Assembly (NCBI GenBank): GCA_036382875.1
Contig: DASVPJ010000042.1
Coordinates: 51,859-115,858, forward strand
Reading direction: 5' to 3'
Length of the DNA stretch: 64,000 nt
Source: Mycobacteriales bacterium
GTDB lineage: Bacteria; Actinomycetota; Actinomycetes; BP-191
The notes beneath the pieces are model-generated. The model did no database searches. It saw nothing but the letters and a program-made list of their open reading frames with translations, and was not told where the DNA came from. Shown here piece by piece: positions 1,694-57,774 of this stretch; position 1 is the stretch's first letter, and each line of letters opens with the position of its first letter. Made by a program: the position numbers and the translations under genes.

Positions 1694-3031
1694 TCAGGAG
1701 GGGCGGACGGTCCGGCGCAGGAGGTAGGCGCCGGCGCCGACGTTCAGCAGCGACCCCAACGGCGTCACGGTGACGACGGCGACCGACGCGGACCGGGTGG
1801 CCAGGTCGGACAGCCCGACCAGCGCGAGGCCGAGGACGCCGGACGCGACGAGCAGCACGCCGGCGACCGCGGCGGCCTGCGAGGCCACCGGCGTCCGCGA
1901 CGGCGACGGGGCGAACGCCACCGGCGCCGGCCGCTCCAGCCGCCCGAAGACCGCGACGAGCCCGGCCAGGAGGGCCAGCAGCACCGCGAACCACAGCGGC
2001 CGGGTCAGCCACCACGCACCGGAGCCGACGGCCGGCTGCGGGAACCACCCGCGCGGCAGCAGCACGAACACGGCCAGCAGCAGCGCGGTCAGGTGCCACA
2101 GGAAGACGGTCATGATGACGCCGTTCAGCGCGACGACGGCGGTCCAGACGCGCGGCCGGGCCAGCCAGCGGGTGACGAGCGGCCGGGCGAGGACTACGAG
2201 CCCGACGAGCCACGCGGTCAGCGCGACGATGCAGACGGTCGGCGGGGCCATGTTCGAGACCTTCTCCCCCGGCATCCCGACCATCGACGTCGGGTACGGC
2301 CCCCACGCGGTCAGCGCGACGAGCGCGCCGAGGCCGGTCGCGGACAGCGCCAGCGCGGCGCGGCGCGAGATGGCGCCGTAGAAGTAGCCGAGCTGGTGCG
2401 CGAGCAGCCAGACGGGGACGACGTTCACCCAGCGCAGCCCGGCCATGCCGAGGCCGAACGACGCGACGTCGACCAGCGCGGCGACGAGCGCGAGCGCCGC
2501 GGGCACCCGCCAGCCGTACCGGCGGTGCAGCCGGATCGTCAACGGCGCCAGCGCGACCATGACGACGTACACGCCGAGGAACCACAGGAGCTGCACGACG
2601 AGCTTCGTGACCCGCGCCGACGGCGAGAGCAGCACCGTCAACGGCACCCAGACGCCGAGCAGCACCGACACCGGGCGGAGCAGCCGGGACAGCCGGCCCT
2701 GCACGAAGTGCACGTACCGGCCGCCGCGCCGCCGCACGCCGTCGTAGGTGACGAGGTGCGCGAACCCGCCCACGAAGAAGAACACCGGCATGACCTGGAG
2801 CACCCAGGTCAGCGGCTGGAGCCACGGCATCGCGGCCAGCGCGTTGCCGGCGTGGAACCCCGACGAGTCGAACGTCACCGCCGCCATCAGCCAGTGGCCG
2901 AGGACGACGACGGAGATCGAGAACGCCCGGAGGAAGTCGACGTAGCGGTCCCGCGTCGCGGGCGTCGCGGCGGCAAGGGTGGCGGCACGGCTCATACCGA
3001 CAAGGTTCGGCGCGAACGAAGGCCGGGCCAT
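1694..3031 (-). CDS. Acyltransferase family 3 (OafA/NolL-like) integral membrane acyltransferase
   Basis: 445-aa polytopic membrane protein with the N-terminal motif FLRAFSISVVVLGHW typical of the AT3 family. Confidence 0.75.
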   Translation of the reverse strand: MARPSFAPNLVGMSRAATLAAATPATRDRYVDFLRAFSISVVVLGHWLMAAVTFDSSGFHAGNALAAMPWLQPLTWVLQVMPVFFFVGGFAHLVTYDGVRRRGGRYVHFVQGRLSRLLRPVSVLLGVWVPLTVLLSPSARVTKLVVQLLWFLGVYVVMVALAPLTIRLHRRYGWRVPAALALVAALVDVASFGLGMAGLRWVNVVPVWLLAHQLGYFYGAISRRAALALSATGLGALVALTAWGPYPTSMVGMPGEKVSNMAPPTVCIVALTAWLVGLVVLARPLVTRWLARPRVWTAVVALNGVIMTVFLWHLTALLLAVFVLLPRGWFPQPAVGSGAWWLTRPLWFAVLLALLAGLVAVFGRLERPAPVAFAPSPSRTPVASQAAAVAGVLLVASGVLGLALVGLSDLATRSASVAVVTVTPLGSLLNVGAGAYLLRRTVRPS

Positions 3032-3073
3032 CCGTCCAGGTACTCAGACGCGACACCCGCGATACTCGACTTC

Positions 3074-4138
3074 GTGCACCCACTCGACGTCGCCGACCTG
3101 CGCGACCGCGTCGACAAGGCGCTCGAGGCGTTCCTCGCGCGGCAGGCGGCGACGCTCGACGCGGTCTCCGACGACCTCGGCCCGGTCGCCGACACGGTCA
3201 CGGAGTTCGTCCTCGACGGCGGCAAGCGGCTGCGCCCGGCGTTCTGCTACTGGGGCTGGCGCGGCGCGGGCGGCGCGGACACCGACGACATCGTGACCGC
3301 GGCGGCGTGCCTGGAGCTGGTGCACGCGTGCGCCCTCATCCACGACGACGTGATGGACGGCTCGGACACCCGGCGCGGGAAGCCGGCGGTGCACCGGCGG
3401 TTCGCGAGCCTGCACCGCGGCGAGCAGTGGCTCGGCGACGCGGAGACGTTCGGGCGCAACGCCGCGATCCTGCTCGGCGACATCTGCCTGGTCTGGGCCG
3501 ACGAGCTCTACGACTCCAGCGGGCTGCCGGCCGAGGCGCTGCACCGCGCGGCGCACACGTACGGCGTGATGCGCGCGGAGGTGATGGCCGGCCAGTACCT
3601 CGACGTGCTGGAGCAGGTCCGCGGCGGTGGCGACGTCGAGCGGGCGCTGCGCGTCGCGCGCTTCAAGAGCGCGAAGTACACGATCGAACGCCCGCTGCAC
3701 CTCGGCGGCGTCCTGGCCGGCGCGGACCAGCGGGTGCTCGACGCGTACAGCGCGTACGGCCTCCCGCTCGGCGAGGCGTTCCAGCTCCGCGACGACGTGC
3801 TCGGCGTGTTCGGCGACCCGCGGCAGACCGGCAAGCCGGCCGGAGACGACCTGCGCGAGGGCAAGCGCACGGTGCTCATCGCCAAGGCCAGCGAGCGCGC
3901 GACGCCGGGCCAGGCCGCGGTGCTGCGCCGCCTGCTCGGCGACCCCAAGCTGGAGCACGCCGGCGTCGAACGCCTCCGCGAGGTCATCGCCGAGACCGGC
4001 GCGCTCGACTACGCCGAGGCCCTGGTCCGCCAGCGCGCGGCCGAGGCGATCGAGGCGATCGAGAACGCCCCCATCGACGGCGAGGCCACGAAGGTCCTGC
4101 GCGCGCTCGCCACCATCGCGACCCAACGCGTGCATTGA
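3074..4138 (+). CDS. crtE: Polyprenyl synthetase, geranylgeranyl diphosphate synthase
   Basis: Polyprenyl synthetase Asp-rich motifs (ALIHDDVMDGSDTRRGKP, FQLRDDVLGVFGD). Lies in a carotenoid context next to crtI. Confidence 0.8.
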   Translation: MHPLDVADLRDRVDKALEAFLARQAATLDAVSDDLGPVADTVTEFVLDGGKRLRPAFCYWGWRGAGGADTDDIVTAAACLELVHACALIHDDVMDGSDTRRGKPAVHRRFASLHRGEQWLGDAETFGRNAAILLGDICLVWADELYDSSGLPAEALHRAAHTYGVMRAEVMAGQYLDVLEQVRGGGDVERALRVARFKSAKYTIERPLHLGGVLAGADQRVLDAYSAYGLPLGEAFQLRDDVLGVFGDPRQTGKPAGDDLREGKRTVLIAKASERATPGQAAVLRRLLGDPKLEHAGVERLREVIAETGALDYAEALVRQRAAEAIEAIENAPIDGEATKVLRALATIATQRVH

Positions 4139-56411: not shown

Positions 56412-56844
56412 CTAACGGCTTGAGCCCTCCGGCGGCATCCCGACGACCCGCCCCGCCTCCAGCCGGTCCTTCAACGCGTTCAGCCCGGCCTTGACCCGGA
56501 CGCGGTGCCGCTCGCGGGCGCGGATCAGCCGCCTCGGCGACAGCTCCCGCGCCGGGTCGGCGCGCAGGTAGTAGTGCACGATCGCGCCGTCGCCCCACGG
56601 CTCGACCCAGAACTCGCTCGTCCCCACCAGCGCGCCGGAGACCCGCAGCCGCACGCCCTCGTCGCCGCGGTCCTCGTACGCCGCGCACTCCAGGTCCGGG
56701 AACAGCCGCCGCCACAGCTCCGGCGACTTCAGCTCGGCGGCGACGGCGGCGGGCGGCGCGACGAGGAACGTCTCGTCGATCACGTCGACCAGCGGCACCC
56801 GCGCAGTCTCACACGGCGTCTCGCGGCGCTGTTGCACATGCCTT
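56412..56844 (-). CDS. SRPBCC family protein
   Basis: About 140 aa. LVDVIDETFLVAPPAAVAAELKSPELWRRLFPDLE... Start uncertain. Confidence 0.5.
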
Positions 56845-56866
56845 GCAGTTACCAGAATTGCGAAAG

Positions 56867-56986
56867 ATGGACATGCCCAATTCGACCCCTTACCCTGCGG
56901 CCATGTCCTTCGCGGTCCTCTACGCACGGCTGCATGTCGACCTGCAGCGCGTGAGCACCGCCCTGTGTCTGCCCTGTCCCTGTTAG
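56867..56986 (+). CDS. Candidate leader peptide (39 aa) ending CLPCPC, in the lower-GC leader upstream of cysH
   Basis: The ATG ORF was translated by hand. Three Cys codons lie among the last six codons. Only a weak RBS-like GAAAG is present. Confidence 0.2.
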   Translation: MDMPNSTPYPAAMSFAVLYARLHVDLQRVSTALCLPCPC

Positions 56987-57099
56987 GACCGGCAGACCCC
57001 TTCGCACCTCCGCATCGGGACGCCGCGTCCGGCGTCCCCGGCCTGGAGCCGTAGGCAACGCCGTCGCGCGAGCGTCCCCCGTTCTCCAGGACGCCGCAC

Positions 57100-57774
57100 A
57101 TGACGATCTCCGCCGCAGAGGACCTCCGTGAGGTCGCGCTGCGCGCCGGGCGCGACCTCGAGGGCGCGCCGGCGGGCGAGATCCTGCGCTGGGCGCACGA
57201 GACGTTCGGCGACCGGTTCGCGCTCACGTCGTCGATGGAGACCGGCCTGCTCGCCCACCTGGCGAGCAGCGTGGCGCCGGGCGTGCGCGTGCTGTTCCTC
57301 GACACCGGCTACCACTTCGCCGAGACGATCGGCACCCGCGACGCGATCGCGAGCGTCTACGACGTCACGGTCCTGACGATCACCAACGACCTGCCCGACG
57401 ACCGCCTCTACGAGCGCGACGTCGACGCGTGCTGCCAGGCCCGCAAGGTGGACCCGCTCGACGCGGCGCTGGCGCCGTACCTCGCGTGGGGCAGCGGCGT
57501 CCGCCGCGACGAGAGCCCGTCCCGCGCGGCCACCCCGGTCGTCGGGTGGGACGCCAAGAGAAGCAAGGTCAAGGTCAACCCGATCGCGGCCTGGACGCAG
57601 GCCGACGTCGACGCGTACGTCGCCGAGCACGGCGTGCTCGTCAACCCCCTCCTCACCGACGGCTACCTCTCGATCGGGTGCGCGCCGTGCACCCGCCGCG
57701 TGGCCCCCGGCGAGGACCCCCGCAGCGGCCGCTGGGCGGGGACCGGCAAGACGGAGTGTGGTCTGCATGTCTGA
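57100..57774 (+). CDS. cysH: Phosphoadenosine phosphosulfate / adenylyl-sulfate reductase
   Basis: PAPS reductase fold. C-terminal CC...CxxC cluster (ACCQ...GCAPCTRR), typical of Fe-S APS reductases. Confidence 0.85.
   Translation: MTISAAEDLREVALRAGRDLEGAPAGEILRWAHETFGDRFALTSSMETGLLAHLASSVAPGVRVLFLDTGYHFAETIGTRDAIASVYDVTVLTITNDLPDDRLYERDVDACCQARKVDPLDAALAPYLAWGSGVRRDESPSRAATPVVGWDAKRSKVKVNPIAAWTQADVDAYVAEHGVLVNPLLTDGYLSIGCAPCTRRVAPGEDPRSGRWAGTGKTECGLHV

Follow-up and report, generated by a model that had tools for sequence, protein, structure and literature searches.

A short ORF (sORF) upstream of cysH is, judging from its sequence and with high confidence, a new and unannotated member of a known, annotated family of actinobacterial leader peptides. 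The region that carries it, the 259 nt that separate the cysH ATG at 57100 from a divergent ORF (56412-56840, minus strand) in the 64,000-nt stretch of DNA analysed here (the window), is probably a promoter and 5' leader in which a cysteine-responsive peptide of the NF042934 type acts by ribosome pausing and alternative RNA folds. By analogy with its homologues, a cis-regulatory role can be assigned to the sORF with high confidence, and homology likewise suggests that the leader responds to cysteine with ribosome stalling as the signal. The structural mechanism that may operate in the clade of the window is proposed from modelled folds with low confidence. An earlier note on this DNA had proposed a cysteine-sensing translational attenuator at this place; the general idea is upheld by homology to the Ms5788A and Ms4527A attenuators and by conservation, but the specifics of the proposal are not.

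The locus and its operon

The gene following the leader opens an operon of the order cysH-sir-cysC-cysD-cysN-binding-protein. Pfam assigns the downstream genes as cysH, sulfite reductase, APS kinase, cysD, cysN and a binding protein of the NMT1 type, which bears out the earlier reading of this cluster as one of sulfate assimilation. The label of 'SRPBCC' given at the same time to the divergent gene finds no such backing, its sole match being a sub-threshold one to Polyketide_cyc2 (17.1 bits versus a cutoff of 27.4). The window CysH has an exact match, at 100% identity, in a metagenome-assembled genome labelled 'Mycobacteriales bacterium'. The source lineage is uncultured, resembles the Mycobacteriales/Frankiaceae and is known from a metagenome-assembled genome.

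The GC content of 56845-57099 is 0.675, compared with 0.73-0.75 in the flanking genes, so the leader is indeed lower in GC overall, as had been remarked, but the dip is limited to 56841-56902 (0.55) and the sORF (0.64), and the 3' leader stands at 0.76. The features of the DNA and of the sORF are as follows.

56831-56850, no strand assigned: dyad-like motif TTGC-N9-GCA, upstream of the promoter and overlapping the putative start of the divergent ORF (56840)
56868-56873, plus strand: putative -35 box TGGACA; A.AT.GACA is invariant in eight relatives, and the box holds most of ATG 56867-69
56891-56896, plus strand: putative -10 box TACCCT, 17 nt past the -35 box and 6 nt ahead of ATG 56903
56903-56986, plus strand: leader sORF MSFAVLYARLHVDLQRVSTALCLPCPC and stop, 27 codons plus the stop codon; start kept in 8/8 relatives
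56915-56968, plus strand: conserved peptide core VLYARLHVDLQRVSTALC, matching NF042934 positions 2-19 and ending at the invariant Cys codon
56966-56968, plus strand: invariant Cys codon UGU (Cys1), the proposed sensor; TGT in 75/75 unique family cores
56975-56977 and 56981-56983, plus strand: extra UGU codons (Cys2 and Cys3), lineage-specific and missing from most relatives
57100-57774, plus strand: cysH (PAPS/APS reductase), gene 1 of the operon; PF01507, E = 8.9e-38

A leader sORF of a known family

The sORF at 56903-56986 lies on the same strand as cysH and 113 nt upstream of it. Against the NCBIfam model NF042934 ('cis_reg_atten', putative leader peptide), for which the curated cutoff is 27 bits, the window core AVLYARLHVDLQRVSTALC scores 34.8 bits (E = 8.4e-9), with residues 5-22 of the peptide aligned to model positions 2-19. 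The peptides of close relatives score 30-36 bits on the same model. The leader sORF is the only match in the 64-kb window, and no further members of the family that would make up a local 'ribulon' were found there. On a second model, NF042936 ('Ms4527A family Cys-rich leader peptide'), the window peptide reaches 22.5 bits, under the cutoff of 45, and the Ms4527A sequence as published scores 41.7 bits, which is also under that cutoff; Ms4527A matches only NF042936 and not NF042934.

Conservation of the mini-ORF was looked for in relatives, as the earlier note had suggested, and it was present: among the CysH matches listed, a short ORF heads the sulfate-assimilation operon at 79 of 80 genome loci, and all eight close leaders carry it. 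At the genome loci the sORF typically ends in ...LVSRRHVDLGRMSSAIC followed by about three residues and the stop, and the window shares this core. The sORF is also present at about 35 of 80 metagenome loci, which are more diverse and again come from the CysH matches listed. It precedes whichever gene opens the operon, be it sir or cysH. The close leaders come from relatives with 77-92% CysH identity, the broader CysH matches listed lying mostly at 55-69%, and comprise seven further loci with the sORF, six of the leader sequences being distinct. In two other pairs of relatives (L169/L170 and L171/L172) cysH stands in other contexts, without the sORF. Streptomyces homologues are annotated as 'putative leader peptide', each on hundreds to at least 1000 contigs; the window's own peptide is absent from the protein collection. 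A full-text literature search for the peptide strings, or for a Streptomyces study of the sORF, found no paper.

The NCBIfam E value, together with the same operon position across genera, argues that the sORF is not a chance ORF. Selection appears to act on the translated product, and this is suggested by several properties of the core. Its codon-position entropy is 0.69/0.60/1.05, the third position varying most; leaders of the window's clade use AGC, TCC or TCG for one and the same Ser; and over the H-V-D codons the peptide stays the same although the hairpins of that clade are not those of Streptomyces. Residues L-4, R-1, H1, D3 and C12 are invariant across the family (78 unique cores).

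Start codon and putative promoter

The ORF had been described in the earlier note as one of 39 codons from ATG 56867 to 56986. This frame is present in the sequence, but its start is not the conserved one. Only in the window, one of the eight leaders, does ATG 56867 share the frame of the conserved ORF; it is out of frame in 7/8 relatives, whereas an ATG-TCC start, at 56903 in the window, is common to all eight. Starts giving 39 codons (ATG 56867) or 47 codons (TTG 56843) were both rejected, being out of frame or absent in 7/8 relatives. The bases surrounding ATG 56867 are conserved instead as a -35-like DNA box, in which A.AT.GACA is invariant.

It is its spacing to the -10 box that suggests TGGACA as the -35 element. 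One of TACCCT, TACTCT or TAACCT stands 6-7 nt ahead of the sORF ATG in all eight relatives, and TANNNT is the actinobacterial type of -10 box. A promoter scan that used the E. coli consensus gave no match. Since the -10 box is only 6 nt from ATG 56903, the mRNA is probably leaderless and starts at the sORF; no SD-like purine run is found in the sequence ahead of 56903. Further upstream, the dyad-like motif TTGC-N9-GCA is a possible binding site for a regulator, and in the alignment of the eight related leaders its columns T6 G7 C8 / G18 C19 A20 / T23 are invariant.

The cysteine codons

The last six codons of the 39-codon frame read C-L-P-C-P-C, and all three of the Cys codons are TGT. This Cys-rich end had been taken as the sensing feature. 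The three codons are there, but Cys1 alone is conserved and the CLPCPC tail is specific to the lineage. The tails of relatives read CLPCPC, CLPCPR, CLPSCTDR, CR, CRPSRSDG and CQPSRSDG, so that the check on Cys-codon conservation returns an invariant Cys1, always TGT, and a Cys2 and Cys3 that are mostly absent. There is a single Cys after the core in 114/127 family members and an extra Cys in 13/127.

The choice of codon at Cys1 runs against the usage around it. Non-conserved Cys codons in sORFs of the family are TGC in 13/17 cases, and the Cys codons of long ORFs in the window are TGC and TGT in a ratio of 20 : 2. The two-fold His and Asp codons of the core are not fixed in their third base. 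A reasonable explanation of the invariant UGU is that wobble decoding slows the sensor codon. Base pairing was rejected as a universal cause; it fits hairpin P1 in the clade of the window, whereas the consensus fold for Streptomyces leaves this codon unpaired. The 2020 paper on Ms5788A (bioRxiv 10.1101/834739) was not found to bring up UGU or UGC anywhere in its main text.

Structure of the leader RNA

The minimum-energy fold of the leader from 56903 consists of three hairpins, P1, P2 and P3. The elements of the RNA are given below.

56967-56997, plus strand: hairpin P1, GUCUGCC..GUCC / GGAC.GGCAGAC; -17.5 kcal/mol, z = -4.2
56998-57016, plus strand: spacer CCCUUCGCACCUCCGCAUC, C-rich and G-poor by its sequence; C-rich in relatives also
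57017-57038, plus strand: hairpin P2, GGGACGCCG-CGUC-CGGCGUCCC, perfect over 9 bp; the hairpin of the earlier note
57062-57078, plus strand: anti-SD segment CGUCGCGCGAGCGUCCC, predicted partner of either the cysH initiation region (in P3) or the P2 left arm (in Conf B)
57086-57105, plus strand: cysH initiation region, with SD AGGAC at 57088-92, GGACGCCGC at 57089-97 and AUG at 57100

The 5' arm of P1 is the Cys-codon tract itself, its foot is the G of Cys1, and the stop codon UAG lies partly in the loop and partly in the 3' arm. An equivalent of P1 occurs in 8/8 relatives, with different paired sequences; it begins inside the Cys codon in 7/8 (at the second base in six) and 4 nt later in L081. 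P2 is formed by an inverted repeat, GGGACGCCG / CGGCGTCCC at 57017-57025 / 57030-57038, and is followed by GGCCUGGAG. A perfect stem had been reported here, and there is one, of 9 bp with a 4-nt loop at 57017-57038 rather than of 8 bp at about 57015-57036. P2 is conserved mainly as sequence in the eight relatives, and in all eight the duplex is worth -15 to -23 kcal/mol. The recurrence of its left arm before cysH is also real, but at 57089-57097 and not at 57086-57093: GGACGCCGC is a direct repeat at 57018-57026 and 57089-57097, the second copy ending 2 nt before the cysH ATG. In general, the features described earlier are present and their positions had been put 2-3 nt too low.

In P3, 57062-57077 pairs with 57089-57097 and with 57101-57105, and both the cysH SD AGGAC and the AUG are buried. 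Opening the initiation region is computed to cost 9.4 kcal/mol when the whole leader is folded and 6.3 kcal/mol when the element is taken alone. The same anti-SD segment has a second partner. In Conf B, as modelled for the element 57014-57105, 57017-28 is paired with 57066-78 and the SD is free. The duplex of the anti-SD with the initiation region is worth -22.4 kcal/mol, and that of the P2 left arm with the anti-SD -24.0 kcal/mol. All 8/8 relatives can form Conf B, and in 5/8 the isolated element has it as its minimum-energy fold; in the window it lies ~6 kcal/mol above P2+P3. According to these models, mutually exclusive leader structures do exist, but they are another pair than the one proposed earlier.

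The hairpins alone are not beyond chance, and what support they have comes only from conservation in relatives. The folding z-score of the 3' leader is -1.67, no better than its composition predicts, and for the 9-mer GGACGCCGC the window has 15 copies, where 11.9 would be expected. When hairpin conservation was checked, P1 was found in 8/8 relatives and the P2 duplex in all eight, and both pairings of the anti-SD are possible; true covariation in P2 and P3 is slight among the eight sequences. A known structured RNA was considered and rejected, as no Rfam family matches the window leader or five related loci: at E <= 10 no meaningful match was obtained with the window leader, and none of the five loci gave one at gathering score. 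A search for intrinsic terminators gave no site in 56700-57200, and no U-tract follows P2.

A proposed route from paused ribosome to cysH

In the scheme we propose, ribosomes would translate the sORF constitutively. When charged tRNA-Cys is scarce, they would come to a halt once the invariant UGU, or in the window one of the two further UGU codons, occupies the A site, and a paused ribosome would keep the RNA just 3' of the UGU, that is hairpin P1, open. Pausing would favour the fold in which the P2 left arm pairs with the anti-SD, with the cysH initiation region exposed as a result; cysH would then be translated more and, by polarity, the operon would be expressed more. When cysteine is plentiful, ribosomes would finish the sORF and leave, and the leader would fold into P1, P2 and P3 with the cysH SD and AUG buried.

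Candidate physical links between the pause and the SD fared poorly in the calculations. A ribosome on the sORF protects the RNA to about 57000 and cannot reach P2. With footprints masked at Cys1, Cys2, Cys3 or the stop, the probability that the SD is unpaired is 0.20 throughout, and opening costs 9.4 vs 9.8 kcal/mol. A thermodynamic relay from stalled ribosome to SD was rejected on these grounds: accessibility does not change in the window and has no consistent sign in relatives. A 'domino' relay was also discarded. In it the 3' arm of P1, once freed, would invade P2 and leave the left arm of P2 to capture the anti-SD. The invading duplex is worth -15 kcal/mol in the window, but when compared with shuffled arms it does no better (z about 0) in all eight relatives, so that this arm shows no specific pairing with the segments of the switch. 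The arrangement of Ms5788A, with the Cys tract bound to the SD, was likewise rejected for cysH, that duplex giving -11.8 kcal/mol versus -22.4 kcal/mol for the local anti-SD. As a matter of speculation, the link may be kinetic, with an uncoupled and slower RNA polymerase letting the helix of Conf B, which is the more stable, form before the initiation region is made.

Other explanations of the leader

The mechanism as it was first written combined the 39-codon ORF, three Cys sensors and a middle arm (57030-38) toggling between 57017-25 and 57089-96, and we regard it as very unlikely to be correct. Its three segments exist, and the P2 middle arm is complementary to the downstream copy at 10/11 positions, the duplex of middle arm and RBS being worth -20.8 kcal/mol. 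Yet its start codon is in frame in 1/8 relatives and sits inside the conserved -35 box, and two of its three sensors, Cys2 and Cys3, are missing from most relatives. The toggle itself is out of the reach of a ribosome, as the left arm begins 31 nt after the stop codon, past the ribosome footprint. It would also achieve little, because the separate anti-SD buries the RBS and the formation of P2 does not free it. Forcing the left arm open makes the fold 14 kcal/mol worse (-32.6 vs -46.8), and pairing of the middle arm with the RBS is weak (-8 to -11 kcal/mol) in L166, L167 and L081, which are among the more distant relatives. Attenuation at the level of transcription is also unlikely. It would be Rho-dependent via the spacer 56998-57016, as in E. 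coli tna, or would occur at P2, a GC hairpin lacking U residues. The spacer is C-rich and G-poor in the window and in relatives, and its sequence makes a Rho entry site only a possibility. Rho-dependent termination has been proposed for terminator-less mycobacterial cys leaders (PMC1262725), and for other mycobacterial Cys sORFs the choice between transcription and translation was left open (bioRxiv 10.1101/834739). Set against this are the lack of any intrinsic terminator in the scan and of a U-tract behind P2, and the experimental exclusion of transcription termination for Ms5788A (bioRxiv 10.1101/834739). Moreover, a ribosome at Cys1 stands upstream of the spacer and leaves it free for Rho loading, so stalling would be expected to raise polarity, which is the wrong direction.

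The conservation of the sORF might in principle have a cause other than regulation in cis, and it is highly improbable that the sORF encodes a trans-acting small protein (e.g. one binding thiols or metal) or marks an untranslated DNA or RNA motif. Codons TTG, AGT and TGT are rare in high-GC genomes. Their retention in Streptomyces hints at constraint at the nucleotide level, and the strong conservation of the non-Cys residues is another point in favour. Against these readings, codon periodicity and the Ser AGC/TCN switches favour translation, the hairpins over the HVD codons differ by clade with no change in the peptide, and Rfam has no match; whatever the gene order, the sulfate-assimilation operon invariably has the sORF as its first cistron, and the mycobacterial homologues act in cis. 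The reading preferred here remains that of a cis-acting, cysteine-responsive leader peptide.

Comparison with known leaders

The earlier note treated the mechanism as new for actinobacterial cys operons, and here it was mistaken: leaders of this kind were predicted in 2005 (PMC1262725), received experimental treatment in 2020, and are annotated as Rv2391A and in Streptomyces. The leader is thus a new example of a known device and not a new regulatory principle. The prediction of 2005 concerned leader peptides with runs of Cys for actinobacterial cys operons (PMC1262725). For Ms5788A, translation of the sORF and its Cys codons give cysteine-dependent control (Canestrari et al., bioRxiv 10.1101/834739; Mol Microbiol 2020), with stalled ribosomes blocking a duplex that hides the downstream SD, and the protein Ms4527 is increased under cysteine limitation (bioRxiv 10.1101/834739). 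Rv2391A, upstream of sirA in M. tuberculosis, is a Cys-response attenuator on which ribosomes stall at the Cys codons after depletion of tRNA-Cys (PMC13096801).

Ms5788A (VSTRLELSLTKRRAVDLCRVAGCCCCCCCC) belongs with the window peptide by its score of 38.9 bits on NF042934, to be compared with 34.8, and by a shared R-R-x-V-D-L-x-R-V...C core. In both leaders the SD of the downstream gene is predicted or known to be sequestered in the leader fold. The means differ. Ms5788A has eight consecutive Cys codons, and this tract itself pairs with the SD (bioRxiv 10.1101/834739), whereas in the modelled window leader the Cys tract pairs locally in P1 and an anti-SD buries the SD, competing with the second hairpin. 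Adjacent Cys codons, of which Canestrari et al. 2020 ask for two or more near the 3' end, do not occur in the window sORF. The operons differ also, Ms5788A controlling that of cysA2 and the window sORF heading that of cysH.

Ms4527A and Rv2391A are closer in setting, with the same type of operon (sulfite reductase plus APS/PAPS reductase), the same first-cistron position and Cys codons near the stop. Ms4527A (VTSARNSITGSLVARRHVDKRVCSCCCLP, upstream of sirA/MSMEG_4527) and the window peptide share LVARRHVD...C. The mRNAs of Ms4527A and Rv2391A have been mapped as leaderless, which is what is predicted for the window sORF. In place of their CSCCC run the window peptide has C-x-x-C-x-C, and the order of the first two operon genes is cysH-sir in the window and sir-cysH in the mycobacteria.

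The 27-aa 'putative leader peptide' of Streptomyces (NCBI PGAP; e.g. WP_324614365.1) is of the same family, heads a sir-cysH-cysCDN operon and has one invariant UGU Cys near the stop and an RRHVDLGR core. Its tail usually consists of three non-Cys residues, whereas that of the window bears Cys. In 25/25 Streptomyces leaders, 7 nt (GGCGNGCU) starting three bases past the Cys codon pair with the start region of sir; these 7 nt are just the stretch that a ribosome would occupy while pausing at the Cys codon. As modelled, this pairing of the 3' end of the sORF with the start of sir follows the same principle as Ms5788A; the window would use the local P1 and a two-state element instead.

Wider parallels can be drawn with E. 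coli trpL and with ermCL, where the leader is likewise refolded according to how fast a short upstream ORF is translated, that speed reporting a cellular signal. Unlike a trp-type attenuator, the window leader has no U-tract terminator. The family also departs from classical attenuators, which have a run of regulatory codons, in that these are single or dispersed, and from trpL in that the peptide upstream of the sensor codon is strongly conserved.

The window adds an uncalled leader peptide to the genome of an uncultured lineage and extends the mycobacterial family of cysteine attenuators to operons in which cysH comes first. What the family conserves is one UGU and a peptide motif, not a run of cysteines, while the RNA output varies with lineage. 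This sharpens two questions, how cysteine might be sensed with a single codon and what part the nascent peptide may play.

On the second question, the arrest peptides TnaC and SecM have conserved residues about 9-13 before the stall codon, and the family of the window has an invariant R-x-H-x-D at 9-13 residues before the invariant Cys codon. The fixed R-x-H-V-D...R motif as a whole lies 6-13 residues upstream of the UGU, and with the UGU in the A site it would plausibly be in the narrow part of the exit tunnel. One may tentatively imagine, by analogy and with less expectation of being right than wrong, that the family is, instead of a sensor built on a run of hungry codons, a module for nascent-peptide arrest or slow-down that turns one wobble-decoded UGU into a gauge of Cys-tRNA or of a sulfur metabolite, with RNA outputs specific to each lineage. 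If so, these outputs would be the Cys-codon hairpin and anti-SD switch in the window, pairing with the start codon in Streptomyces and pairing of the polycysteine tract with the SD in Ms5788A.

Codon choice and base pairing in the leader sORF

The single Cys that is conserved across the NF042934 leader-peptide family (codon 56966–56968 in the window) is encoded by TGT in all 75 unique cores of the family from the related cysH loci compared (L001–L173). Non-conserved Cys codons of the same sORFs are TGC in 13 of 17 cases, and the long ORFs of the window use TGC 20 times and TGT twice. Unlike the conserved Cys codon, the core His and Asp codons vary at their third position in the same family cores.

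The H-V-D codons sit within a hairpin both in the window’s clade and in Streptomyces (window 56929–56948; A2 columns 24–51), although the pairings differ, being GCTGCA/TGCAGC in the former and GTCGRCG/CGTCGAC in the latter. When the full leader is folded, codons 5–9 of cysH (57113–57125, …CCGCAGAGGA) are predicted to pair with the sORF's 5' end (56905–56917, UCCUUCGCGGUCC). This helix closes the whole leader, and a similar closing helix is found in the related locus L161.

Upstream region and divergent neighbour

Two features lie upstream of the putative -35 hexamer (56868–56873):

56831–56850, dyad-like motif TTGC-N9-GCA, conserved in eight related leaders
56412–56840, minus strand, divergent 142-aa ORF

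The motif, which reads GTTGC...GCAAC in some relatives, could be a binding site for a regulator. The window copy shares bases with the putative start codon of the divergent ORF (ATG, 56840). The earlier note had labelled this ORF SRPBCC, a label that is not confirmed: only a sub-threshold match to Polyketide_cyc2 was obtained (17.1 bits against 27.4); the ORF has no NCBIfam match. Most close relatives carry a different gene in this position, encoding a protein of 267–304 aa.

The Streptomyces leaders (L012, L004 and others) have in common a conserved block, GGATAACGGTGGACT, about 45–60 nt upstream of the sORF ATG, and GACACGCTTCCGTC directly before it. As their -10 position does not fit TANNNT, their promoter architecture may differ from that of the window’s clade.

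cysH loci without the leader and additional family sORFs

The leader sORF is absent from the related cysH loci L171 (1440–1510) and L172 (same place), with CysH 81% identical. GTACCCT lies 7 nt before cysH in both, so this cysH may be leaderless. No sir follows cysH, which adjoins a divergent 149-aa ORF; the 5' part of its coding sequence is closely similar in DNA to that of the window’s 142-aa neighbour.

Additional sORFs of the same family occur near cysH loci, on the opposite strand, in L097 (minus strand) and L089 (minus strand): in L097 at about 2848–3228 and in L089 at about 118–498, with peptides …LVARLHVDLLRVSSMVCRPV and …LLTSRRHVDLQRVISSACPTSR; in these genomes the family may head other operons too.
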